Shown in pieces: positions 1-58,759 of a stretch of DNA of 64,000 bases. The notes beneath the pieces are model-generated. The model searched no databases and was not told where the DNA came from. It saw nothing but the letters and a program-made list of their open reading frames with translations. Positions within the stretch are counted from its first letter, which is position 1. The number at the start of each line of letters is the position of its first letter. A program made the translations under genes and the position numbers. Origin of the DNA: Flavobacteriales bacterium (GTDB lineage: Bacteria; Bacteroidota; Bacteroidia; Palsa-965); the NCBI GenBank assembly GCA_040377305.1, contig JBEIPA010000012.1:100339-164338 (forward strand), read 5' to 3'.

Positions 1-3000
1 GGTGAAGGTGTAATTGTGATTACAATCTGATCGCTTACCGCCGTACAAGTTCCATTACCAGTAGATGTCAGTGTCAGTGTAACTGTTCCTGCAGCGCGCT
101 CGGCAGCTGTTGGAGAGTACACCGCATTCATCGTTGTATTGTTCGGTGCAAAAGTTCCGGCACCACCTGTCCATGCTGCACCTGAAGAAACTGTAAATGC
201 TCCCGAGAGAGTTACGGCAGAGTTGTTTGCACAAACTGTTTGATCAGGACCTGCGTTTACTGTTGGAGCAGGAGTGAAGAAAATTGTCATCTGATCCGTA
301 ACAGCAGTACAGGTTCCGTTACCGGTAGATGTAAGTGTAAGTGTAATACTTCCGCCGGCAATTTCTCCTGCTGTAGGTGTGTAGGTTGCATTCAGTGTCG
401 TGTTATTCGGAGCGAAAGTTCCCAAACCGCCTGACCATGAACCACCGGATGCTACCGTGATTCCACCAGCTAGCGTGGTTACTGCATTGTTCGCACATTT
501 GGTTTGATCAACGCCAGCATTTGCAGTAGGAGCAGCAGAGAAGAAAATCGTCATCTGATCAGTGACCGCATTACATGTTCCGTTCCCGGTTGTAGTCAAC
601 GTGAGTGTAACACTACCAGACGAAATTTCTCCGGCTGTCGGCGTGTATGTTGCATTCAAAGCTGCATTAGAAGGGTTAAACGTTCCAGCGCCTCCCGACC
701 ATGCACCACCTGTTGCAACAGTAACGATTCCTGCGAGCGTCGTACCGGCATTGTTCGCACATTTCGTTTGGTCAGGACCTGCGTTTGCAGTTGGTGAAGG
801 TGTGATCGTAATCAGCACCTGATCGTTCACTGGATTACAGCCACCATTACCTGTAGTTGTTAGCGTGAGTGTAACACTGCCTGCTGCACGTTCCGCCGGA
901 GTCGGCTGGTACGTGGCGTTCATTGTCGTGTTATTCGGTGTGAATGTTCCAGCGCCTCCAGACCATGCCGCACCCGTGGATGTGGTGAATGATCCCGCCA
1001 AAGTCACCAACGAATTGTTTGAGCACACCGTCTGATTCGGTCCTGCATTAACAGTTGGTGCAGGTGTAAAGAAGATCGTCATCTGATCTGTCGTTGCATT
1101 ACATGTACCATTACCGGTTGTGGTAAGCGTGAGTGTCATACTTCCACCGGAAATTTCTCCAGCGGTCGGCGTATAAGTTGCATTCAACGCGTTAGCATTC
1201 GGTGCAAATGTTCCCAGTCCACCGGACCACGTTCCGCCCGTTGCAACGGTTACAGAACCTGCTAGTGTAGTTGCTGCGTTATTCGCGCACTTGGTTTGAT
1301 CCGGACCCGCGTTCGCCGTTGGAGAAGACGTAAAGAAGATCGTGATTTGATCAGTCACCGCGTTACACGTACCGTTTCCGGTGGAAGTCAGTGTGAGTGT
1401 AACGTTACCGGCAGTAATTTCTCCGGCGCTAGGTGTGTAAACTGCGTTCAAGGCTGTTGCAGAAGGATTAAATCCGCCAGCACCACCCGTCCACACGCCA
1501 CCAGTTGCTCCACTTACAGTTCCAGCAAGAGTTGTGGCAGCATTGTTTCCGCACTTGGTTTGATTGGGACCAGCATTTACAACCGGAGAAGGTGTGAAGG
1601 TGATCGTAATATTATCATTGACCGGATTACACAATCCATTTCCTGTGCTTGTTAAAGTAAGGACAACGCTACCGGCAAGTAATTCGCCCGCGGTAGGTGT
1701 GTAAATTGGATTGAGTACGTTGTTCGATGGTGCGTAAGTACCTGCGCCACCTGTCCAAACACCTCCCGTGGCAATTGTAACAGCTCCGCTCAATGTTGTA
1801 TTCGCGTTGTTCCTGCATTTTGTTTGATCGGGACCAGCATTAACTGTTGGAGCCGGAGTAATGGTTAATGTCATTGGATCCGAAACAGGAATACACGCAC
1901 CTGTTGATGTGAGCGTTAATGTTACCGTTCCAACTGCGGCATCACCAGCACTTGGAGTGTACACTGCGTTCAACGTGGTAGCGCTTGGCGTAAATGTTCC
2001 GCTACCGGATGTCGTCCACAGTCCTGTGGTCGTACCACCGGCGACACTACCACTGAGTGTGGCAGTCGTATTCGCACAAATCGTTTGATTAATTCCGGCG
2101 TTGACGGCAATCGGAGCAACGAATTCAGAATAGTATCCGTACCGGCAACCGGAAGTACCTCCGCCATTGACAAGTCCTAATGCAAAAACGTCCAGAGAAT
2201 TCGCAACACGAAACGTGGAATCGACCGGAACTTGAGTTGTATTATAAGTAATACGCGCAGAGCTCCATGTTCCACCAGTGCCTGGAACAACAAGGAAAGA
2301 GGCTGGATTTATGGTTGCCGTACCTGGTCCAACAATTGTAAATGCATTGATAGCAGCAGTGCGGCACAGTAACGTAACATAAAAAGTTTCTGCAGTGGTC
2401 CGCACAAAATTTACGGCTTGAGATCCGGCACAATTTAATGGCGGTAGTATGGCCATTCCCGACTCACATCCAAATCCTGTGACGTGTACGGCATAAATCG
2501 GTTGCGTGGCGTGAATGAATACTGAACTTCCTGCGGGACTTGCTGCTAAATAATCCATGTCAACGCGATAGTATTCTCCAGCGAATAGTGTAACTACAGG
2601 TACAGCTGCTCCATCCAGAAAAATCTGTGTATTGTTTCTGGTTGCAGTGATGATCACACTCTCATCGCCCGTTGCGTTGAGTGAACCTTTAACGGCTACG
2701 TAATCTTCACCAAGAATATTTACCGGAACCAATTGATCCCCCATGAGGTCATAACAACCTCCGGAAGGATTGCGATCGGAATCGTCTTTGAGAGAAACGG
2801 CGACAGGTTTATCGGAAAGCACCACCGCACCAGAAGGATGCGTTGAGGGCTGTTCATAGTTAGCACCGGTCCACGCACACGAATAAGTTTGACCGATATT
2901 AAGTGTCACCGAGAACTGCTGCAACGCCGGATGTCCATCGACAGGAACCGGAGAATAAATGGTAACTACCGTATTGTTCTGAGTCGCAACAATATCAAAA

Positions 3001-13335: not shown

Positions 13336-13493
13336 GAACATTCGACCCCTTCGGGGTCGGGGTGCCTCGCGTGTAATTTTTTCTATTCACATTAAACCCT
13401 TTCAGGGTTTCTTATCGAACGACGCTGAAGGCGTCGAATGTGAATAGAAAAAACGTGCGTGACACGACCCCGACCCCTAAGGGGTCGAATGTC
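13336..13493. repeat. Nested imperfect palindrome of ~158 bp (MITE-like, cruciform-capable element). It lies between the CPBP stop and the ridA start.
   Basis: The outer arms are gaacattcgaccccttcggggtcggggtg and cacgaccccgacccctaaggggtcgaatgtc. The inner perfect 17-bp arms are ttttttctattcacatt and aatgtgaatagaaaaaa. Two central local hairpins, aaaccctttcagggttt and cgacgctgaaggcgtcg, sit between them. The right arm overlaps the CPBP stop codon. Confidence 0.6.
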
Positions 13494-29541: not shown

Positions 29542-30324
29542 GTGATAGAAAAATACGACCAGATCGGAGTTGGATATAACACCACACGCAAGGTAGATCA
29601 TTACCTGCTGGGTCGTATGATTCACTTCCTGAGAGCAGAAAATACAGGAACGTATCTCGACATCGGATGCGGAACCGGAAACTATACCATTGAATTCAGC
29701 AAACGCGGCGTTCACATGGTGGGCATTGATCCATCGGAAGCGATGTTGAGTATTGCTCGTTCACGCACCAGTACTGTTGAATGGAAGAACGGGAAAGCCG
29801 AGAACATTCCGATGGAAGATGAAAGTGTTGACGGAATTCTGGCTGTGCTCACAACTCATCATTGGACAAATCAGGATAAAGGTTATGCAGATCTTGGTCG
29901 TGTGATGAAGAAAGGAGCGCGACTCGTCATCTTCACTGCAACGCCTGAACAAATGCGGGGCTATTGGCTAAACCATTATTTCCCGACCATGATTCGCGAT
30001 TCGGGAAAACACATGTTGCCCTTTGAAACAATCGAAGCAACACTGAAGAAAGCCGGATTCACAAGCGTGACTTCCGAAAAATATATGGTTACAAACGACT
30101 TACAGGATTTATTCCTTCAGTCGGGCAAACATAATCCGGCGAGTTACCTCGATGAAAATGTCCGTCGCGGAATTTCTTCTTTCGCCACTGCAAAAAATCC
30201 GGATGAGGTAAGCAGCGGACTCAACCAGCTTCGTGAAGACATCGCGACAGGCAAGATTGAAGAGGTGATGAAGAAGTATGAAAGTGAAGTAGGGGATTAT
30301 CTTTTCGTGGCAGCGCAGAAATAA
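29542..30324 (+). CDS. Class I SAM-dependent methyltransferase, small-molecule Methyltransf_11-like.
   Basis: Motif I LDIGCGTGNYT, an acidic post-I residue, and motif II/III DGILAVLTTHHW. No DNA-MTase DPPY/NPPY motif. GTG start. Confidence 0.75.
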   Translation: MIEKYDQIGVGYNTTRKVDHYLLGRMIHFLRAENTGTYLDIGCGTGNYTIEFSKRGVHMVGIDPSEAMLSIARSRTSTVEWKNGKAENIPMEDESVDGILAVLTTHHWTNQDKGYADLGRVMKKGARLVIFTATPEQMRGYWLNHYFPTMIRDSGKHMLPFETIEATLKKAGFTSVTSEKYMVTNDLQDLFLQSGKHNPASYLDENVRRGISSFATAKNPDEVSSGLNQLREDIATGKIEEVMKKYESEVGDYLFVAAQK

Positions 30325-30533
30325 TGTGCTAATGGGTTAATGTGCTAATGGGTTAATGTGCTAGTGTGTTAAAGTCGCAGTAACCAGACTTGTTCTAGTT
30401 CATCCCAGATTGCAATACAAATGGGATCCATTTCAGGGGGATTCCCATCGAGCAAGATAAGTTGATAGTGTTGTACTAATATATGGCCCATCGTTGGTTT
30501 AGCACATTAACCCATTAGCAAATTAGCACATTA
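30323..30533. mobile_element. MITE-like element of ~210 bp with ~35-bp inverted arms. The arms are built from alternating taatgtgc/taatgggt octamers. It sits between two convergent genes.
   Basis: The left arm is taatgtgctaatgggttaatgtgctaatgggttaatgtgcta. The right arm is tagcacattaacccattagcaaattagcacatta, its reverse complement. Both ends abut TAA or TTA stop codons, consistent with TA flanks. Confidence 0.5.
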
Positions 30534-31013
30534 TTTTTTCTGTTCCAGATTAATCTCTGTTACGAAATCTCCGCACACAAACCGAAACTTGTTCTGACCC
30601 CAACGATAAGCTGAAACCGTGTGTTCGTTGGTGAATGAGAATTTCGTTTCTCCACCTTTTGCTTTCTTACTGCTCTTTGTCGACATAACAGGAGTGAAAA
30701 TGTGGACAGCAACCATATTGGCGCTGTCCTTGTTTTCATATTGTTCGCTCACGTGAACTTCACCGATCGATGGTTCGTAACCCACGTTCGTTTTCATCGT
30801 GCCCGTAATGGTGTATGAAATCTTCGCAGTCGTGTTGAGTAAGTTGAGATTATTCTCCACGATTTTCACGGTGAAAGACTCAATCTTTATGTTGGGATTT
30901 TTCGTCCACCAACCGAGCTTGTGCACTTCTTTCACTTCGGTCTTAGCTTTCTTCGGGCCAAAACATCCGCAAAAAAAGGAAACAAGAAAAACGGCAACTA
31001 CGAAATATCTCAT
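30531..31013 (-). CDS. Hypothetical lipoprotein of 160 aa, immediately downstream of flotillin.
   Basis: Signal plus lipobox FFCGCFG. Confidence 0.45.
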   Translation of the reverse strand: MRYFVVAVFLVSFFCGCFGPKKAKTEVKEVHKLGWWTKNPNIKIESFTVKIVENNLNLLNTTAKISYTITGTMKTNVGYEPSIGEVHVSEQYENKDSANMVAVHIFTPVMSTKSSKKAKGGETKFSFTNEHTVSAYRWGQNKFRFVCGDFVTEINLEQKK

Positions 31014-37619: not shown

Positions 37620-37689
37620 AATAGGCTGAGGTGAATGTGAATGAGTGCAAAAATACCAATTTCTACCTTAATTGACGACAGTATTTTAA

Positions 37690-37724
37690 CCACAAAGGCG
37701 CGAAGCCGCAAAGGCACGCAAAGG
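37690..37724. repeat. Left 35-bp inverted-repeat arm flanking the GxxExxY gene.
   Basis: ccacaaaggcgcgaagccgcaaaggcacgcaaagg abuts the gene stop. It is the reverse complement of the arm at 38118..38151 with 1-2 mismatches. Confidence 0.7.
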
Positions 37725-38111
37725 TTAAAGTCCGTTGACAAACCGACGTATACCTTCCTTCATTCTTGGAACATGAAAGTTCAGAATAAAACCGAGTCTT
37801 TTCTCTGAAAGTTTTAAGTAGGAAATCACTTGTGCCTCATAAACAGGGTGCAAATCCGTGACAGCTTTTAACTCAAGTACGATTTCATCTTCAACCAGAA
37901 TATCAATTGCATAACTAGCTTCTAATTCTTTGCCTTTATAAAACAATGGAACATAAACCTGACATCTTGCGTTGATTCCTTGTGATTTTAATTCTTCGAA
38001 GAGACAGTGCTCGTATACACTCTCGAGTAATCCCGGGCCCATGGTTTTGTGAACTTCCATTGCACATGCGATTACTTTATATGATAAATCATTTATTTGT
38101 TGTGAGGTCAT
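37725..38111 (-). CDS. GxxExxY protein, a small PD-(D/E)xK-like family member.
   Basis: MTSQQINDLSYKVIACAMEVHKTMGPGLLESVYE carries the family GxxExxY motif. ~128 aa. The ORF-track start is an upstream alternative codon. Confidence 0.7.
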   Translation of the reverse strand: MTSQQINDLSYKVIACAMEVHKTMGPGLLESVYEHCLFEELKSQGINARCQVYVPLFYKGKELEASYAIDILVEDEIVLELKAVTDLHPVYEAQVISYLKLSEKRLGFILNFHVPRMKEGIRRFVNGL

Positions 38112-38117
38112 AATTTT

Positions 38118-38151
38118 CTTTGCGCGCCTTTGCGGCTTCGCGCCTTTGTAG
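38118..38151. repeat. Right inverted-repeat arm flanking the GxxExxY gene.
   Basis: ctttgcgcgcctttgcggcttcgcgcctttgtag lies 6 nt upstream of the gene ATG. Confidence 0.7.
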
Positions 38152-38175
38152 TTAATTGAAAAATGTTTGATGGAA

Positions 38176-45143: not shown

Positions 45144-46195
45144 TGAAGCGACTTGGAATCATAGCAGCGATTTGTGCTTTGCCGGTGATGATTGTTATGT
45201 TCATCGGTAGCTGTACAACTGATCCTGAAATTCCGGATACGCTGGATGAGGAAGACGTAAAGTTTCGCATCCCGCAAGGATTTCCAACTCCGAATTACGA
45301 CTTCGCGCTGAATCCAATCACACTCGATGGATTCAAACTCGGACGAAAACTTTTTTACGATCCAAAGCTTTCACGCGACAATACGATCTCTTGCGGATTC
45401 TGTCACCAACAATCTGGCGCATTTGCGCACATCAATCACCAGGTTAGTCATGGCATTGATGGATTGCTCGGCACACGCAACGCTCCGGGCTTATGGAATC
45501 TCGCCTGGAACGACAAGTTCATGTGGGATGGTGGAATTCCTCATCTTGAATTGCAGCCACTCGGACCTATTGACAATCCGGTTGAAATGGATCAGGATCT
45601 TGCGGCTTTGCTTTTAGAATTAGCTGCTGATCCGGAATATCCTGCATTATTTGAAGCAGCATTTGGTACGGACACGATCACCACGCAACGAATGACAAAA
45701 GCCATCACGCAGTTTCAGGGTCTGATGATTTCCGACAACAGCAAATACGATCAGGTTCAACGCGGAGAAGCAACATTCACACAACAAGAATCGTATGGAC
45801 TGGCAACGTTTCGTAGCAAGTGTGCGTCTTGTCATACAGAACCCTTGTTCACCGATCGTTCGTTCCACAACAACGGTTTAAGACCGGAACCCACGATTAT
45901 GGATGCAGGACGAATGATGATCACAGCAGATCCGAGCGATTCTATGAAATTCAAAACACCATCGTTACGAAACATTGCAATCACGGCACCGTATATGCAT
46001 GATGGAAGGTATGAGACGCTAATGGAGTGCATGAATCATTACAGCGGAGGAAATTTATACCAGAGCGCAACATTGGATCCGGCTTTGAGCGCAGGAATTC
46101 CATTGACAGCTCAGGAGAAATCAGATTTGATTGCGTTTCTAGGCACTTTGACAGATTACACGTTTATTAGTGATCCGAAATTTGCCGAACAGTAA
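45143..46195 (+). CDS. Di-heme cytochrome c peroxidase family protein (CCP/MauG/MbnH-like).
   Basis: Two CxxCH heme motifs, CGFCH and CASCH. Signal peptide. ~350 aa. Confidence 0.8.
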   Translation: MKRLGIIAAICALPVMIVMFIGSCTTDPEIPDTLDEEDVKFRIPQGFPTPNYDFALNPITLDGFKLGRKLFYDPKLSRDNTISCGFCHQQSGAFAHINHQVSHGIDGLLGTRNAPGLWNLAWNDKFMWDGGIPHLELQPLGPIDNPVEMDQDLAALLLELAADPEYPALFEAAFGTDTITTQRMTKAITQFQGLMISDNSKYDQVQRGEATFTQQESYGLATFRSKCASCHTEPLFTDRSFHNNGLRPEPTIMDAGRMMITADPSDSMKFKTPSLRNIAITAPYMHDGRYETLMECMNHYSGGNLYQSATLDPALSAGIPLTAQEKSDLIAFLGTLTDYTFISDPKFAEQ

Positions 46196-46233
46196 ATCAG
46201 TCGGCAGTCAAGCAGTCTGGCAGTCGGCAGTCA

Positions 46234-46668
46234 ATGGAAATTTCGATAGCTAAGAGAAGCATGAAAAATTCAGTGGTCATTTTCTTTGTTCTCATTCTCA
46301 CTTTGGGAATGACTTCGTGTGAAAAAGATCCTGAAACAGTGCCTGAAGGAACGGTGCGACTTTTCATCAATGTCAATCACCATGGTTTACCAATTGCGAA
46401 TGCACGTGTGTTCCGCAAAGAAGGCGCAACAACCTGGCCTGGTACCGATACTACATTATACGATCAGGTTTATCAGGTAGACGCGAGCGGAAATCTAACG
46501 ATCGCTATTGGTAACGGCACGAAACAGTTTGTCTTGTATGCTGTTGGCGTCGATCCTTCCTGGGACTCAACAGGAACTACATTTGTACACGGCTACCAGT
46601 TTTACAACATTGTGACTGGAATCGGGGAGAGCAAGGATATTACTTCGGAGATTGGAGTTTCTGAGTAA
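46234..46668 (+). CDS. Hypothetical small lipoprotein
   Basis: Signal plus lipobox MTSCEKDP. 144 aa. A solo copy of the gcaaagg repeat lies immediately downstream. Confidence 0.4.
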   Translation: MEISIAKRSMKNSVVIFFVLILTLGMTSCEKDPETVPEGTVRLFINVNHHGLPIANARVFRKEGATTWPGTDTTLYDQVYQVDASGNLTIAIGNGTKQFVLYAVGVDPSWDSTGTTFVHGYQFYNIVTGIGESKDITSEIGVSE

Positions 46669-46786
46669 TCTTTGCGTTGCCTTTGCGTCTCTGCGCCTTT
46701 GCGGTTGAAAAGAAGAACGCCGATTTTCGTTATGCAGCTAGCACCTAACACAATCTGCATATCGGCACATTATTTCCGGGTATTGT

Positions 46787-47491
46787 TCATGGAAAAATTA
46801 TGATTCTCGTCTGCACTCCAATCCGATCATAAACATCTTCCACATCCACATTCTGCATCGATATACATCCCCATGTAATATCCTGTTCATCATCTCCCGG
46901 CCACGTTCCATACCAGCCGTGAATGCCGATTCCTCCACCGAGATCGGTTGTCTTTAGCGGCATCAAACCTTTCTTATTCGCAGCTACAATCTGGTCGTAC
47001 TGACTTTTCGTGATGAGTTCTTTCTCAAGTCCGGCTTTCGCATCTGCATTGTTCGGATAGTTCAGGCGCATCCAACGATTTCCTAAGTAAGGATTCGCGC
47101 CAGTGAACGGTCCGACTGTTTTCTCAATGATGCGGTAATCGCCTTCCGGAGTTCGGTTGTCGCCTTGCTGCTGTTTGTGACCGATGGGTTCCTGTCCAAG
47201 TCCGATGATGTACGTTTTCTGCAACACGCCTTTGTAGTACAACTGCATTCTGTATTTGCTTTTGTAAGCGATGAGCAGCGTGTCTTCCTTCTTCAGTGAA
47301 TCGGGTAGGGCAGGAAGGACTTTCTCCGTACTTGCATACGTTCCGGCAACAGTTCCTTCAACGTAGCTCAGTGATTTTGCAGGAAAGCTTCGGATGTACG
47401 TTTGCGCTCCTGATGGCAAAAACGGGAATACCACCAGAAAAAGGATGGTGATTACCACAAAGGCTACGAGGACTTTCTTCCAGCGTTTCAT
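46787..47491 (-). CDS. L,D-transpeptidase family protein (YkuD domain).
   Basis: N-terminal TM. The catalytic His/Cys context is GIHGWYG...GCISM. Confidence 0.75.
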   Translation of the reverse strand: MKRWKKVLVAFVVITILFLVVFPFLPSGAQTYIRSFPAKSLSYVEGTVAGTYASTEKVLPALPDSLKKEDTLLIAYKSKYRMQLYYKGVLQKTYIIGLGQEPIGHKQQQGDNRTPEGDYRIIEKTVGPFTGANPYLGNRWMRLNYPNNADAKAGLEKELITKSQYDQIVAANKKGLMPLKTTDLGGGIGIHGWYGTWPGDDEQDITWGCISMQNVDVEDVYDRIGVQTRIIIFP

Positions 47492-47579: not shown

Positions 47580-47752
47580 GTCTGCGACGCTTTACACGGC
47601 GGCACAGCGAAACGGAGAGGCATTACGAATTCTAAGCCCACGCGTAACGGCTTCAGACGATCGCAATAGCGATCCTCTGTTTCTCGTGGGTTAAGAATAG
47701 AAAACAATTGGCTCCGTAGCGCTGTGTCGCCGTGTAAAGCCAGCGCAGCGAG
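47580..47752. repeat. GC-rich nested palindromic element of ~170 bp. It lies in the ldt 5' region and the FAH 3' region.
   Basis: The outer arms are gacgctttacacggcggcacagcg and cgctgtgtcgccgtgtaaagc. Three helices are nested inside: acggag/ctccgt, cccacg/cgtggg, and gatcgcaatagcgatc. Confidence 0.55.
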
Positions 47753-48365: not shown

Positions 48366-48397
48366 CGAAACTTTTTTTAATCGCTTTGCGATTGCTT

Positions 48398-48493
48398 CAC
48401 CACGGCGGCACGGCGAGCACGGCAATTTATTTTTTGTGCGTCCTATATAATCCAAAAAAAAAACTTGCGCCGTGCTCGCCGTGACGCCGTGGT
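48398..48493. repeat. GC-rich ~26-bp inverted repeat with a ~42-nt AT-rich spacer, related to the 47.6-kb element.
   Basis: caccacggcggcacggcgagcacggc ... gccgtgctcgccgtgacgccgtggt. Confidence 0.55.
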
Positions 48494-48507
48494 AGAGCAG
48501 GCTACAG

Positions 48508-52802: not shown

Positions 52803-52955
52803 CAGTAGGCAGTTGGGCAGTAGTGCAGTTGGCAGTATATAGTGAGATTCGTTAGAAAATGTGAAGGTTTCAATCGAATCGGTCAGATCCGTGAGGACAA
52901 CATTTTTTGACTGCCAACTGCCCTACTGCTTACTGCCTACTGATGTTGAAAACCG
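52803..52955. repeat. Inverted pair of the dispersed ctgcctactgc-family repeat, ~34-bp arms with a ~80-bp spacer.
   Basis: cagtaggcagttgggcagtagtgcagttggcagt ... gactgccaactgccctactgcttactgcctactgatg. Confidence 0.6.
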
Positions 52956-54739: not shown

Positions 54740-54814
54740 TTTCTAATCTGCGAAATCTGCGCATCTGCGGCGGATAGAAGCCATGATCTTTAGGGAAAAG
54801 GTGTAAATTTCAGT

Positions 54815-55324
54815 ATGCGTTGGCTAATAATTTTTGTTTTGGGCATGTGGTGTGTCAATGCACATGGGGTCGAACTTTCTATTTCTGTAAATAGTTCGGG
54901 AGAAACAAAATCATGTGTTACAGGTCGCTTTCACGGCATTCTCATTGTCCAACAATTTCGTTGGTTGGAATGGCGGAATGTTGATACGGTTGGAATTAAT
55001 CAACAGTGGAGTGACAGTTGTATTTTGGGTACCGTATTTCTGCATAGTGGAGAAAATCAAATTCGATTAGTGGGGATTCCAACCAACCCATATATGGAAT
55101 CGTACAAATCAGCTATCTCTGCAATAACGACTTCCACTGTTTGCAACTTTGATGGCAAATGCAACCACATCGGATTTACAGTCAAGACAATCTGGGAGAT
55201 AAGAGACCAGGACGGTGTTCTATTGAGAACAGGATTCTCCAGTATCGTGAATACAGACGGACTGCCAAAAGGCGGATACTTCTTGTATTATGACAACAAG
55301 CGTTCAGAGTTCTTCAAGCAGTAG
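54815..55324 (+). CDS. Hypothetical secreted protein of 169 aa
   Basis: The N-terminal hydrophobic segment MRWLIIFVLGMWCVNAHG looks like a signal. No domain recognised. Confidence 0.35.
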   Translation: MRWLIIFVLGMWCVNAHGVELSISVNSSGETKSCVTGRFHGILIVQQFRWLEWRNVDTVGINQQWSDSCILGTVFLHSGENQIRLVGIPTNPYMESYKSAISAITTSTVCNFDGKCNHIGFTVKTIWEIRDQDGVLLRTGFSSIVNTDGLPKGGYFLYYDNKRSEFFKQ

Positions 55325-55530: not shown

Positions 55531-56415
55531 ATGGGCGTTTTAGTCGGCAAAAATTCGAAAGTAATTGTACAAGGTTTCACTGGAACTGAAGGTACTTTTC
55601 ACGCAACTCAGATGATTGAGTTCGGAACTAATGTTGTTGGTGGTGTTACACCGGGCAAAAGCGGACAAACGCATTTGGATCGTCCTGTGTTCAACACAGT
55701 TGCTGATGCAGTTGCGAAAACTGGCGCTGATGTTTCTATCATTTTCGTTCCACCGGCTTTTGCTGCTGACGGAATTATGGAAGCTGCGAACGCTGGAATC
55801 AAAGTGATTGTTTGTATCACGGAAGGAATTCCTGTGAAAGACATGGTGCAGGTGAAAGAATACCTGAAAGGTCGTGAGTGCCGCTTGATCGGACCGAACT
55901 GCCCGGGTGTTATTACTGCAGACGAAGCGAAAGTTGGTATTATGCCAGGATTCGTTTTCAAAAAAGGAAATATCGGAATCGTGTCGAAGTCGGGCACGTT
56001 GACATACGAAGCAGCTGACCAGATTGTGAAAGCTGGATTGGGAGTTACAACTGCAATCGGAATCGGTGGAGATCCTATTATCGGAACAACAACGAAAGAA
56101 GCAGTTGAATTGCTGATGAACGATCCGGAGACACACGGAATTGTGATGATCGGTGAGATCGGTGGCGGACTCGAAGCAGAAGCGGCTCGTTGGATCAAGG
56201 CAAACGGAAATAAGAAGCCGGTTGTTGGATTCATCGCAGGCAAAACAGCTCCGAAAGGAAGAACAATGGGTCACGCCGGAGCAATCGTTGGTGGTGCAGA
56301 AGATACAGCAGATGCTAAAATGGCAATCCTGCGTGAGTGCGGAATTCACGTTGTGGATTCACCAGCTACTATTGGGAAGACCATGGCGAAAGTGCTTGGG
56401 AAAGTAACTGCTTAG
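55531..56415 (+). CDS. sucD: Succinate--CoA ligase subunit alpha
   Basis: [48 protein letters not shown] is the canonical SucD N-terminus. Confidence 0.9.
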
Positions 56416-56467
56416 ATCAACTCAAGATTTATTTGAAGCCTGACTGCGAAAGTAGTTGGGTTTTTTT

Positions 56468-56522
56468 GTTCCGCCTCCGGCGGTTTGCCACAGATTCGCA
56501 GATTACGCTGATGGCTCAGATT
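56468..56522. repeat. Left inverted-repeat arm of the lipoprotein cassette (37 bp perfect match, 55 bp counting the extension).
   Basis: gttccgcctccggcggtttgccacagattcgcagatt, then acgctgatggctcagatt. It contains the ccgcc-tcc-ggcgg hairpin, which may double as a weak sucD terminator. Confidence 0.75.
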
Positions 56523-56523
56523 T

Positions 56524-56922
56524 TTATTTTCCTTTCTGAAGTATTCTTTCCAGCGATTGTTCCTCAGTCAGATAAACAATTGAATCCATTTCGGAGACAC
56601 TGACAACATAAACGGATGTATCATTCTTACCATAAAAATTCAGATACTGGCCTCCGCATGTACGTATCGAATCTTCAAGTCTAAATGCCCATAGAGCGCC
56701 TTGTGCATTGGCTTTTTTGCTGGTTATCTTAATGGATTTCGGGTAGAGTGATTCTAGGTAAGTGCAACTTGTTCCGGTCCACACGACTGAATCCAGATTT
56801 GAAATATCATAGTCTGTGTAGTATTCAGGAGAGATCGATGGACTGCAGTGGTGTTTATTTTCCGATGTCGGATCACCACACGCGATAGCTGCAAAAATTA
56901 ACAGAAGGAAAAAGTATCGCAT
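56524..56922 (-). CDS. Hypothetical small lipoprotein of 132 aa, bracketed by the 46-bp inverted repeats.
   Basis: Signal plus lipobox AIACGDPTS. Cys-containing. Confidence 0.45.
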   Translation of the reverse strand: MRYFFLLLIFAAIACGDPTSENKHHCSPSISPEYYTDYDISNLDSVVWTGTSCTYLESLYPKSIKITSKKANAQGALWAFRLEDSIRTCGGQYLNFYGKNDTSVYVVSVSEMDSIVYLTEEQSLERILQKGK

Positions 56923-56971
56923 TGAACTTGCCTTTCGTTAAAGTTAGTAATTCACAAATCATAATTAGCGC

Positions 56972-57017
56972 AATCTGAGCAATCTGCGAATCTGTGGCAA
57001 ACCGCCGGAGGCGGAAC
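56972..57017. repeat. Right inverted-repeat arm of the lipoprotein cassette.
   Basis: aatctgagcaatctgcgaatctgtggcaaaccgccggaggcggaac is the reverse complement of the left arm except for a 9-bp indel. It is built of tandem aatctgNgN 9-mers. Confidence 0.75.
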
Positions 57018-57103
57018 AAAGCCTCGATCTTGACTAAAAATTTTAGTTTTCCAAGCACGCCACTTTTTTGCAGTCTACTTTTGTAACATCAACTACGAAA
57101 GTT

Positions 57104-58759
57104 ATGCTCGCTTCACTCCATATCCAGAATTACGCCCTCATCGATTCAGCAGAAATTGAACTCGGTCCGGGCCTGACAATTATCACCGGCGAAACAGGTG
57201 CAGGAAAATCCATTCTGCTCGGCGCACTCGGATTGCTACTCGGTGATCGTGCTGATTCTTCATTGCTGTTCGATAAATCGCGCAAGTGCGTAGTGGAAGG
57301 AAAGTTCACGGTCGGGAAATTCGGACTGAAGAAATTCTTCGAGGACAATGATCTCGATTACTCCGATGAAACGATTATTCGTCGCGAATTTACTTCTGAG
57401 GGAAAATCACGTGCGTTTGTGAACGACACACCGGTAACGATTTCTTTCCTGAAACAGATTTCTCCACGCTTGCTTGATGTGCATTCTCAGCATGAAACAT
57501 TGACGCTGACGAATTCCAATTTCCAGCTTTCTGCCTTGGATGCAATAGCAGGAAACGACAAACTGAATGTCGAATACAGCGAACGTTTCAAGCGTTACAA
57601 GAAATCGCTTTCTGCACTGGAAGCTTTGAAGGATATCGAAGCGCAGTCGAAGAAAGATCTCGATTACTTCACATTCCAGTTTGAGGAGCTTGACACAATG
57701 CAACTCAAAGAACTCGAGCAGGATGAACTGGAATCGGAACTCAAGACGCTTGAGAATGCAGAAACCATCAAGAGCGGACTGGCAAAATCGTTTGGAGCGC
57801 TGAATGGAGGCGAAGAGAATCTGGTTGCAGGAATTAACGCGGTGAAGATTTCCATGAATCAGCTTTCGAAGTACAATCCGAAAGTGGCGGCGCTTTCCGG
57901 GCGACTCAACAGTGTGTTGATAGAACTGCAGGACATCTCTGCCGAAACCGAACAGCTCGAAGAAGAAATTGTGTACGACCCGAAGCGCATTGCATTGGTG
58001 AACGAGCGTCTCGATGCGATTTACCGTTTGCAGCAGAAGCACGGTGTGAGTACAATCACCGAACTTATTGTTTTGTGCGATGAACTGCGTGAGAAGATTG
58101 ATTCCATTGCTTCTCTCGACGCGCAATTGATCTTCGCAGAGAAAGAACTGAATGAATCACTCGTTCTGGTGCGCGAAACAGGGGAGAAGCTCACAGCAAA
58201 ACGGGAAGAGTCGGCACCAAAGCTGTCGAAGGAAATCAAGGCTATGCTTGGTGAACTCGGAATGCCGGCTGCTCAGTTGAAAGTGGAAATGGAAACAACT
58301 GCAGATCCGCTTAATTCCGGATTCGACAAAGTTCAGTTCATGTTCACTGCAAATAAAGGTTCGGACTTGCAGCCAATTAGTAAAGTTGCCTCGGGCGGAG
58401 AGTTGTCGAGACTGATGTTGTCACTGAAAGCTATGCTCTCGAAAGGAGCTTCCCTGCCAACCATCATATTCGACGAAATCGACACAGGAATATCGGGCGA
58501 CATCGCCGCGAAAGCCGGTGGCATCATGCACAAGATGGGCGCGAACATGCAAGTGATTACGATCACACATTTACCTCAGGTTGCAAGCAAAGGCGACACA
58601 CATCTGTTCGTGTATAAGGAAGAAGTCGGCAAGAAAACAGTGAGTTGCATCAAACAATTGACCGACAAGCAACGCATTGAAGAAATCGCGAAGATGTTGA
58701 GTGCAGGGAAACCGGGAGAGGCGGCGAGGGAGAATGCGAAGGAGTTGTTGTCGAATTGA
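57104..58759 (+). CDS. recN: DNA repair protein RecN
   Basis: From the internal ATG: MLASLHIQNYALIDSAEIELGPGLTIITGETGAGKSIL. The SMC-like coiled coil is present, with a C-terminal signature and Walker B. Confidence 0.9.
   Translation: MLASLHIQNYALIDSAEIELGPGLTIITGETGAGKSILLGALGLLLGDRADSSLLFDKSRKCVVEGKFTVGKFGLKKFFEDNDLDYSDETIIRREFTSEGKSRAFVNDTPVTISFLKQISPRLLDVHSQHETLTLTNSNFQLSALDAIAGNDKLNVEYSERFKRYKKSLSALEALKDIEAQSKKDLDYFTFQFEELDTMQLKELEQDELESELKTLENAETIKSGLAKSFGALNGGEENLVAGINAVKISMNQLSKYNPKVAALSGRLNSVLIELQDISAETEQLEEEIVYDPKRIALVNERLDAIYRLQQKHGVSTITELIVLCDELREKIDSIASLDAQLIFAEKELNESLVLVRETGEKLTAKREESAPKLSKEIKAMLGELGMPAAQLKVEMETTADPLNSGFDKVQFMFTANKGSDLQPISKVASGGELSRLMLSLKAMLSKGASLPTIIFDEIDTGISGDIAAKAGGIMHKMGANMQVITITHLPQVASKGDTHLFVYKEEVGKKTVSCIKQLTDKQRIEEIAKMLSAGKPGEAARENAKELLSN

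Follow-up and report, generated by a model that had tools for sequence, protein, structure and literature searches.

The spacer between sucD and recN in a Flavobacteriales bacterium (Bacteroidota, Bacteroidia, Palsa-965; assembly GCA_040377305.1, contig JBEIPA010000012.1, positions 100,339 to 164,338) holds a small lipoprotein gene that lies between the two arms of a long, near-perfect inverted repeat. The whole 64,000-nucleotide (nt) stretch analyzed here, termed the window, had previously been read by a model from its sequence alone, and this original prediction described the repeat, implied a mobile cassette, and gave a structural or regulatory palindrome as the alternative. The locus was compared with the same site in relatives, with the other long inverted repeats of the window, and with similar layouts around other small open reading frames (ORFs). 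The genes near the spacer are those for an SBP_bac_5 protein, sucD, recN, and an OmpH-like protein, and the coordinates of all features are collected in Table 1.

The inverted repeat and the gene it encloses

The repeat occupies the spacer between the terminator-like hairpin of sucD (56435-56464) on the left and the recN ATG (57104) on the right, which is where the original prediction had placed it. Its core is a 37-mer, GTTCCGCCTCCGGCGGTTTGCCACAGATTCGCAGATT, found on the plus strand at 56468-56504 and as an exact reverse complement at 56981-57017, with 0 mismatches as predicted; the match occurred in none of 100 dinucleotide-preserving shuffles of the sequence. If the extra 9-nt unit ACGCTGATG (56505-56513) is left as a bulge, pairing continues between GCTCAGATT (56514-56522) and AATCTGAGC (56972-56980), so that the predicted extension past one 9-nt indel was also seen and 46 bases are paired; the left arm has one unit more than the right. 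Extended without gaps, the inverted repeat covers 65 nt at 86% identity. Moreover, the arms are built of tandem 9-nt units and a small hairpin, as proposed: the mini-palindrome CCGCCTCCGGCGG is present in both, and Tandem Repeats Finder reported period-9 arrays of 2.9 copies each at 56970-56994 and 54745-54769. The second of these arrays bears out the degenerate copy predicted at about 54745-54773, which starts 6 nt past the stop codon of the SBP_bac_5 gene and ends 42 nt ahead of an ATG at 54815.

Only 1 nt separates the left arm from the stop codon of the lipoprotein gene, and the right arm stops 49 nt short of its ATG on the upstream side, in agreement with the earlier claim that the arms enclose this gene together with ~50 bp of upstream sequence. 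Outside the arms, the flanks (TTTTTTT on the left and AAAGCC on the right) are mutually complementary and form no direct repeat. No further copy of the 37-mer arm with up to three mismatches was found in the 64-kb window, to which all copy searches for the arm refer. The predicted fold of the minus-strand RNA of the whole region retained the long stem (minimum free energy of -193 kcal/mol; z = -8.5), and an Rfam search of the window returned no family and no rRNA. Because of the inverted repeat, one peptide, FRLRRFATDSQI, appears in two spurious ORFs on opposite strands (56337-56603, plus; 56873-57058, minus), an effect that the prediction had correctly recognized.

The lipoprotein gene is real, and its family is very small. 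The N-terminus of its product reads MRYFFLLLIFAAIAC followed by GD, and the protein had no match in Pfam or NCBIfam. A word-indexed search of 5.8 billion proteins recovered only the lipoprotein itself, and a phmmer search of 1.84e9 representatives yielded four relatives (E values of 2e-14 to 2e-10). All five aligned family sequences have the motif SPxYYTDFDIS and other invariant residues in common, and the full-length relatives P0017, P0018, and P0019 carry, like the query, a hydrophobic leader ending in Cys and followed by Asp, Asn, or Gly-Glu. The fourth relative, P0020, is the ORF of the related contig L017 described below; its leader is not in line with those of the other members and lies in another frame. 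In that contig (7036-7400), the signal peptide (MRYIPLTFFTFLLACSS; MRYIPLTFFTFLLACSSLNHNE*) is out of frame with the mature part, and this orthologue may be either a frameshifted pseudogene or the product of a sequencing error. P0017 is encoded in another context, beside a Fic gene, with only an ordinary 14-bp terminator hairpin.

Judged against the codon usage of the window's long genes, the annotated frame was the best of six, though slightly (mean natural logarithm of relative synonymous codon usage, 0.036 versus 0.024 for the next frame). The gene has a GC content of 40.4%, compared with 44.7% for the window, and other small genes here are similar; its composition, including a low codon-usage score shared with these small genes, is at most a weak hint of foreign origin. 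A single-sequence AlphaFold model was uninformative (predicted local distance difference test score of 35). Scans of genome and metagenome contig collections with the lipoprotein alignment gave no match, and the DNA pattern of the recN promoter was found at only two loci in the metagenomes.

The sucD-recN site in relatives

Contigs of relatives (numbered with L) with 91 to 97% sucD protein identity and 83 to 92% sucD DNA identity allowed the same spacer to be compared across lineages (Table 1). Results revealed that three lineages (the window, L017, and L024) have the lipoprotein gene at an identical place and facing the same way and that it is absent from three further lineages that retain a tandem-unit hairpin, as well as from L026. 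The L017 ORF matches the lipoprotein with 46% identity over 72 amino acids (BLASTP E value of 6e-19). Among the gene-less relatives, L025 has the closest recN (88%), and its hairpin stands directly upstream of the conserved recN element. A clean sucD-recN junction, which the original prediction had suggested looking for in strains without the gene, was not seen; L025, L018, and L011 all retain the hairpin.

Three unrelated arm families occur at the site (those of AATCTGCGA, CGCCAAGA, and TCAGCTA), and left arms pair only with right arms of their own family. In a cross-pairing matrix, duplexes within a family had energies of -26 to -90 kcal/mol, compared with only -2 to -24 kcal/mol for duplexes between families. 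Complementarity is retained while the sequence of the arms is replaced. Since gene-less relatives keep the hairpin and gene-bearing relatives have unrelated arms, the comparison indicates that the arms belong to the sucD-recN site and not to the gene. The gene itself is most simply regarded as ancestral at this site and lost several times, because its place and orientation are shared by three lineages spanning the group.

Further arrays and other elements were found in the same spacer. In L024 a third array stands just ahead of recN, and L011 likewise has one before the recN ATG; in L032 a different array (AACTGNN units) abuts the recN element, after which the contig ends. The spacer of L026 (recN, 80%) holds an ORF resembling REP-associated tyrosine transposases (RAYT-like; REP, repetitive extragenic palindrome), which is flanked on both sides by the palindrome GCATAGAGCTTCAAGGCCTAAGGCCTTGAAGCTCTATGC (coordinates 44-88, 197-784, and 822-860); the ORF matched NF047646 with an E value of 3.5e-17, below the family cut-off, and had no Pfam match.

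In every relative, homology to the window restarts just past the right arm, at TTGACTAAAAATTTTAGTTTT. A near-palindromic sequence, (G/T)(G/A)CTAA(A/G)(A)(A/T)TTTTAGTTTT, was observed upstream of recN at this point in the window (57028-57047) and in L011, L017, L018, L024, L025, L026, and L032, and it may serve as a promoter element or as a regulator (SOS-type) site. On the other side of the spacer, octamer arrays of the GTCTCANG type were observed 100 to 330 nt downstream of sucD, beside the end of rsmF, in L001, L003, L004, L006, L007, and L014; the number and order of their units vary among close relatives, which indicates fast slippage. Long arrays of a 19- to 20-nt unit, GGGTCCGCACCCTTGGAGG, are found downstream of sucD in L005 instead. 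A second variable slot adjoins the sucD-recN region: the SBP_bac_5 gene and sucD are separated by genes for small secreted proteins, and these gave no DNA alignment between the window (54815-55324) and L011 (4714-5836).

Inverted tandem-unit arrays at other loci

A scan for inverted repeats with arms of at least 20 nt, at least 85% identity, and a spacer of at most 700 nt detected seven long inverted-repeat loci in the window, compared with a mean of 0.05 expected from second-order Markov simulation (40 runs). All seven are intergenic or reach only the last codons of genes, and 7- to 9-nt units build all of them except the locus at 13338-13492, whose arms hold a palindrome. The units are locus specific, with at least five unrelated arm sequences among the seven loci, and the loops measure 45 to 476 nt. 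Two of the seven loops contain a complete small gene, i.e., the lipoprotein gene and a gene of the GxxExxY/PDDEXK_3 family. More broadly, over 20 tandem arrays of period 7 to 9 and at least seven unit families (AATCTGCGA, CAAAGGCG, CACGGCG, TAATGTGC, ACTGCCT, ATTTGAAA, and GCAGTCN) occur within the 64 kb. The sucD-recN hairpin is thus a member of a class of intergenic inverted arrays of 7- to 9-nt units that is common in this Bacteroidia lineage.

The arms of the GxxExxY locus fit their gene tightly, with gaps of 1 nt to its stop codon and 6 nt to its ATG, and both of their mismatches become G-U pairs on the sense strand of the gene (-73.3 versus -65.5 kcal/mol). Solo copies resembling this arm (GCCTTTGC units) were observed at 46679-46708 and 47215-47238, 8.5 to 9 kb away, showing that the arm family is dispersed locally. 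L011 holds a degenerate counterpart of the hairpin at 52803-52942. The two CACGGCG hairpins (47589-47740 and 48393-48499) sit on either side of a gene of the fumarylacetoacetate hydrolase family. A GCAGTCN array (46190-46234) fills the whole 38-nt spacer from a stop codon (46195) to the next ATG (46234), in line with TAACTGA arrays that have been described as abutting start codons. At the very start of the window (1-1884), seven tandem copies of a 264-nt unit with 62 to 70% identity presumably belong to a repeat-domain protein that runs off the window end.

The same layout was found around other small ORFs. In a plasmid collection, GxxExxY genes of Bacteroidota, Sphingomonas, and Treponema lie within inverted arrays of ~8-mers; where annotation is available, the gene fills the spacer and is co-oriented with its housekeeping neighbors (ssb and an aminotransferase gene, radA and a gene for a flavin adenine dinucleotide [FAD] protein, ade and manC, and fabD and fabG). 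Genes of the 23S_rRNA_IVP family, named for the 23S rRNA intervening sequence (IVS), show a similar arrangement outside rRNA. In relatives of the window bacterium, such a gene lies between rpmI and infC, within the infC-rpmI-rplT operon, inside a 41-nt inverted repeat of GAATTCGA-type units, and its orientation is the same in L001, L003, and L004. Genes for S23p four-helix-bundle proteins are likewise accompanied by inverted heptamer arrays in Riemerella (suf operon), on a Calothrix plasmid (TTAGCTG), and on a Nostoc plasmid (GGGAAAA; 31 nt, 94%), the Calothrix and Nostoc arms being heptamers of the short tandemly repeated repetitive (STRR) type. Flanking inverted arrays were present at five to six of nine GxxExxY loci and at four of five IVP loci. 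At the rate given by the window simulation, the chance of an inverted repeat of such quality is ~5e-4 per 700-nt stretch.

In an alignment, many 8- to 9-mer arms resemble one another at their outer ends across loci and phyla, reading TT(A/C)AC-C(A/G)C and then C.C.AAG-like units; compare CACAGATTCGCAGATT in the window arm with CACAGAGGACGCAGAGGA in Bacteroides finegoldii. The motif is carried by GxxExxY arms from four phyla, by the hairpins at 47589 and 48393, by the L017, L025, and L018 hairpins, and by the inner lipoprotein arm. Its enrichment in the window is marginal, with 11 matches versus 6.0 expected and 11 reached in 4 of 100 shuffles. If this terminal motif is real, the hairpins could be relics of GxxExxY-type elements.

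Table 1. Features of the sucD-recN locus, other inverted arrays of the window, and comparable loci
Feature	Position or contig	Strand	Description
sucD (succinate-CoA ligase alpha)	55531..56415	+	NCBIfam NF004230, E = 1e-127
sucD intrinsic-terminator-like hairpin and T-run	56435..56467	+	Terminator scan (hairpin 56435-56464) and sequence; by its G-U pairs, plus strand only
Left arm	56468..56522	none	37-mer 56468-56504; mini-palindrome CCGCCTCCGGCGG 56471-56483; bulge unit 56505-56513; paired unit 56514-56522
Lipoprotein gene, 132 amino acids	56524..56922	-	ORF list; signal peptide and lipobox Cys (AIAC, then GD)
Right arm	56972..57017	none	AATCTGAGC 56972-56980; reverse-complement 37-mer 56981-57017; mini-palindrome 57002-57014
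Element TTGACTAAAAATTTTAGTTTT	57028..57047	+	Directly outside right arm; conserved in all relatives; start of conserved recN upstream region
TAnnTTTG-like -7 box TACTTTTG	57073-57080		By eye
recN	57104..58759	+	TIGR00634, E = 4e-137
Solo third array of lipoprotein-arm 9-nt unit (AATCTGCGAAATCTGCGCATCTGCGGCGG)	54745..54773	+	Orientation as right arm
GxxExxY/PDDEXK_3 locus	37686..38155	-	Gene 37725-38111, E = 1.6e-42; CAAAGGCG-type 8-mer arms 37686-37723 and 38118-38155, 38 nt, 95%
Tandem-unit hairpin	30308..30547	none	TAATGTGC and TAATGGGT 8-mers; loop 124-142 nt; between convergent genes
Tandem-unit hairpin	47589..47740	none	CACGGCG-type units; arms 29 nt, 90%; loop 94 nt
Tandem-unit hairpin	48393..48499	none	CACGGCG units; arms 31 nt, 90%; loop 45 nt
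Tandem-unit hairpin	52803..52942	none	ACTGCCT 7- to 8-mers; loop 67-73 nt; divergent miaB-like/SBP_bac_5 spacer
Nested inverted repeats	13338..13492	none	26-nt arms, 96%, each with palindrome GACCCCTTCGGGGTC; inner repeat 32 nt; between convergent genes
TT(A/C)AC-C(A/G)C sites	10786, 37686, 38143, 46696, 48396		In the window
sucD-recN spacer	Window		Arms 46 bp, AATCTGCGA units; lipoprotein gene between arms
sucD-recN spacer	L017		Arms TTTTACCGCCAAGACGCCAAGATCGCCAAGA and GTCTTGGCGCTCTTGGCGGT, CGCCAAGA family; 458 nt apart; minus-strand ORF homologous to lipoprotein
sucD-recN spacer	L024		TCAGCTA heptamer arms, 30 nt, 93% (28/30); 525 nt apart; orthologue P0019 and sucD terminator enclosed
sucD-recN spacer	L025		Perfect 25-bp stem of CGCCAAGA units; 11-nt loop; without lipoprotein gene
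sucD-recN spacer	L018		Degenerate arms of CGCCAAGA family; 14 nt apart; no gene
sucD-recN spacer	L011-L013		TGATGAC/TGATAAC-type arms, 23 nt, 96%; around sucD terminator only; no gene
sucD-recN spacer	L026		Identical 40-nt palindromes; RAYT-like ORF
GxxExxY arms	Bacteroides finegoldii		30 nt, 90%
GxxExxY arms	Bernardetia		28 nt, 86%
GxxExxY arms	Sphingomonas parapaucimobilis		25 nt, 92%; between fabD and fabG
GxxExxY arms	Treponema		16 nt, weaker
GxxExxY arms	Prevotella		Weaker
GxxExxY loci beyond window	L033 1140-1611; L034 1169-1619; L037 665-1101; L038 625-1085; L036 1117-1717
23S_rRNA_IVP/S23p loci outside rRNA	L003 10486-11118 (also L001, L004); L041 620-1182; L042 558-1099; L043 644-1101		Inverted 7- to 8-mer arrays

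Possible roles and known systems

Considering all of these results, the best explanation overall, which we put forward tentatively, is a long hairpin bound to its site, with the lipoprotein gene in its loop and a role exerted as an RNA duplex. The structural part of this explanation, that the arms constitute a site-bound and self-matching hairpin, is very probable. The functional part, that an RNA stem closes off the enclosed message and processes it in an RNase III-type manner or insulates it, is less likely than not. The sequence data establish the repeat and its significance, its link to the site, the co-variation of its arms, the variable presence of the gene, and the reality of that gene; pairing in RNA, a part played by RNase III, the way in which the effect would run, and the means by which the arms stay alike are inferred. 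Of the two possibilities left by the original prediction, the structural or regulatory palindrome is favored, with conservation of the pairing and not of the sequence.

According to this explanation, the arrays would change fast through the gain and loss of units, and the likeness of the arms would be maintained via exchange between them or via selection for pairing; fast turnover of units together with maintained likeness would produce unrelated arms at the same site across lineages, each left arm matching its own right arm. A transcript running across both arms, whether begun on the minus strand beyond the right arm, on its upstream side, or reaching in from sucD by read-through, would give a duplex of ~46 bp that closes off a loop of ~440 nt with the ORF. 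Duplexes of 37 to 46 bp are the type of substrate cut by RNase III, and this enzyme would cut the stem, as it does in the 23S rRNA IVS. The stem would then part the loop RNA from neighboring transcripts and decide what becomes of the enclosed message, through stabilized ends or through occlusion and decay. Such an RNA stem would be favored by the precedent of the IVS, by arms that in several cases fit the ends of their ORF tightly, and by the G-U pattern on the GxxExxY sense strand.

Several observations weigh against this explanation. A single RNA spanning both arms is presumed from the sequence, and a possible start, TATGATTTG, which is near the Bacteroidetes -7 box, may lie between the right arm and the ATG; a start there would leave the 5' arm outside the mRNA. 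The G-U strand test was inconsistent and based on few mismatches, with the locus at 47589-47740 favoring the strand opposite its genes, and the lipoprotein arms are uninformative for this test because they pair perfectly. Moreover, the lipoprotein gene is antisense to both neighbors, whereas the GxxExxY and IVP genes are co-oriented with theirs. If selection acted on RNA pairing alone, recognizably homologous arms carrying compensatory substitutions would be expected rather than wholesale replacement, and replacement by new tandem units points to a process at the DNA level (slippage together with exchange between the arms), perhaps a functionless one. In addition, the arm families do not track sucD phylogeny: the two lineages closest by sucD (91.8%), L024 and L025, have different arms, so that spacer exchange between lineages, or the coexistence of several arrays, must also be involved.

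Such a process is the subject of the first competing explanation, which we regard as unlikely, namely, that the hairpins are a neutral by-product, with unit slippage and template switching or gene conversion at quasi-palindromes re-perfecting the arms and regenerating the hairpins without any role. This would be consistent with the abundance of period 7 to 9 arrays in the window and the copy number variation between close relatives, with the wholesale replacement of arms between lineages, with the degenerate versions in L018 and in the L011 counterpart of 52803-52942, and with the unequal arms, the left having one more unit. Published heptamer arrays, including the convergent pairs of Xanthomonas, are likewise without established function (PMC4692102, PMC4679880). 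However, a hairpin stands at the same spot in six lineages whose sucD genes are 8 to 14% apart in DNA sequence, the arms are near perfect (37/37 and 28/30) across 440 to 525 nt, a long distance for template switching, and they abut stop and start codons precisely. The recurrent link to particular small ORFs across phyla also points to constraint.

An inversion switch (inverton), in which recombination between the 37-bp arms would flip the gene on or off relative to outside promoters in the manner of the phase-variable surface proteins of Bacteroidetes, is improbable. A surface-type lipoprotein gene is indeed tightly enclosed by perfect repeats long enough for homologous recombination, no clear promoter was found by eye within the loop, and the concerted evolution of the arms implies physical exchange. 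Nevertheless, each of the three lineages that carry the gene has it facing the same way relative to sucD and recN, the IVP gene likewise keeps one orientation in L001, L003, and L004, and there is no recombinase among the neighboring genes. Since arm sequence differs at every locus, no sequence-specific invertase could serve them all, and hairpins with loops of 11 to 94 nt hold nothing to switch.

The unit could also be the relic of a mobile element of the GxxExxY/IVS type, whose PD-(D/E)XK protein would recognize conserved termini and for which the lipoprotein gene would be cargo, the 8- to 9-mer hairpins being derivatives that underwent internal deletion or a swap of cargo; this seems to us quite improbable. 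The TT(A/C)AC-C(A/G)C outer ends of many arms, with their marginal enrichment, and the arm-like solo copies at 46682 and 47215 speak for it, as do the multiple horizontal transfers of PDDEXK_3, a family of unknown function (PMC3424549). Against it, the likeness of the motif is weak and is absent from the heptamer arms (L011, L024, and the IVP cases), there are no target duplications, the loop holds no GxxExxY remnant, and the gene is most simply taken as ancestral at the site, with arms that change around it.

The mobile cassette implied by the original prediction, whether an element that resembles MITEs (miniature inverted-repeat transposable elements) or insertion sequences and has a passenger gene or a REP sequence or REP doublet (REPIN) mobilized by a RAYT, is very improbable. 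It would explain terminal inverted repeats around a small accessory gene that some relatives lack, and the L026 spacer, with a RAYT-like gene between identical 40-nt palindromes, is in keeping with it. Yet the gene-less L025, L018, and L011 keep the hairpin, the gene-bearing L017 and L024 have other arms, and neither a direct repeat (target-site duplication) at the borders nor a second copy in the 64 kb was found. No transposase lies in or beside the unit, and a tblastn search with the L026 RAYT-like protein found none in the window; REP families, moreover, consist of many near-identical copies, and here the loci differ. Equally remote is the earlier suggestion of operator arrays, in which the 9-mers at 54745, 56491, and 56972 would be bound by a regulator that controls the gene or recN through a DNA loop: one unit does form three arrays within 2.3 kb, of which one is opposite in orientation to the other two, and L011 and L024 have their third array before the recN ATG, but each of at least seven unrelated unit families in the 64 kb, and others at the site in relatives, would need its own regulator, and complementarity is conserved rather than sequence.

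Two further candidates were rejected. An integron cassette would have attC sites downstream of its ORF and intI nearby, but here the arms stand on both sides of the ORF, the ends, GTTCCGC...GCGGAAC, have a polarity opposite to RYYYAAC...GTTRRRY, and no integrase is among the neighbors. An origin of the repeat by an inversion splitting one tandem array was rejected because of the non-repetitive GTTCCGCCTCCGGCGGTTTGCC in both arms.

A broader view, which we consider somewhat unlikely, extends the site-bound hairpin to an as yet undescribed module found across phyla, in which small accessory ORFs occupy the loops of long intergenic hairpins whose stems of 7- to 9-nt units evolve fast and in concert, resembling an IVS outside rRNA, within spacers and operons. 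The ORFs of this module so far would be those for the GxxExxY PD-(D/E)XK nuclease, the 23S-IVS four-helix-bundle protein, and the lipoprotein. If this were true, the stem would be an RNase III excision or insulation device, or else a structure that the GxxExxY nuclease recognizes for homing into hairpin loops, and the "empty" tandem-unit hairpins, perhaps with part of the STRR/heptamer repeats, would be its relics.

Tandem 7- to 9-mers in bacterial spacers (STRR, TAACTGA, and GGGAATC) have been known for decades and have no accepted function, nor has one been assigned to the very widespread GxxExxY and 23S-IVS-protein families. The locus ties these short tandem arrays to both protein families at a site that can be compared across relatives. 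Arrays that come as complementary pairs, pairing that survives complete replacement of sequence, and small ORFs in the loops make a vague repeat phenomenon testable. For annotation, such inverted repeats yield spurious mirrored ORFs and may pass for transposon ends or invertons.

Among known systems, MITEs and foldback transposons also have terminal inverted repeats, and foldback arms consist of tandem subrepeats around a variable center; at the present locus, however, there is no target duplication and no other copy in the window, "empty" sites keep their arms, and arms differ at orthologous sites. Bacteroidetes invertons are similar in having inverted repeats of tens of base pairs around a few hundred base pairs, with surface proteins as typical targets, and they differ from the present arrays, which have no shared repeat motif, no neighboring recombinase, one orientation in three lineages, and many loops that are too short. 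REP sequences, bacterial interspersed mosaic elements (BIMEs), and REPIN-RAYT systems comprise intergenic inverted palindromic doublets and long hairpins, with the RAYT gene between inverted REPs; each arm here has its own small palindrome, and a RAYT-like gene with palindromes occupies the spacer in L026. The arms described here are nevertheless locus-specific tandem units rather than many near-identical REP copies, and no RAYT was found in the window.

Heptamer arrays (GGGAATC, STRR, and TAACTGA) share with the present arrays the intergenic head-to-tail units of the 7-nt class near gene ends and the convergent pairs, and the arms of L011 and L024 are TAACTGA-like. TAACTGA heptamers have been reported from cyanobacteria, Beggiatoaceae, and a few Bacteroidetes (PMC4679880), and Xanthomonas has 70 to 75 convergent GGGAATC array pairs that could form stem-loops, with a length that is not conserved between species and a pair type that is preserved (PMC4692102); the function of heptamer arrays is open (PMC4692102, PMC4679880, 10.1101/2022.06.06.494920). 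In contrast to their single dominant unit, unit families in the window number at least seven and have periods of 7, 8, and 9, and the enclosure of whole ORFs and the turnover of arms at an orthologous site are absent from those papers. More generally, the open-access literature gave no account, outside rRNA, of small ORFs between inverted tandem arrays, and none of arm turnover at an orthologous site.

The 23S rRNA IVS with an S23p ORF (Coxiella and Leptospira) is a segment of ~430 nt with a terminal-repeat stem of ~28 bp and a small ORF in its loop, and its protein family, PF05635, was found here in tandem-unit hairpins outside rRNA. In Coxiella, the terminal inverted repeats of the IVS pair into a stem of 28 bp whose loop holds the S23p ORF, and this stem is the place of RNase III cleavage (PMC4990558). 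The present locus differs in lying between sucD and recN, not in helix 9, 25, or 45 of 23S rRNA, and in its lipoprotein cargo, its tandem 9-mer arms that are replaced between relatives, its antisense gene, and its processing, which is presumed. The structure is, apparently, an undescribed but abundant variant of the tandem-repeat and IVS themes, with a putative function.

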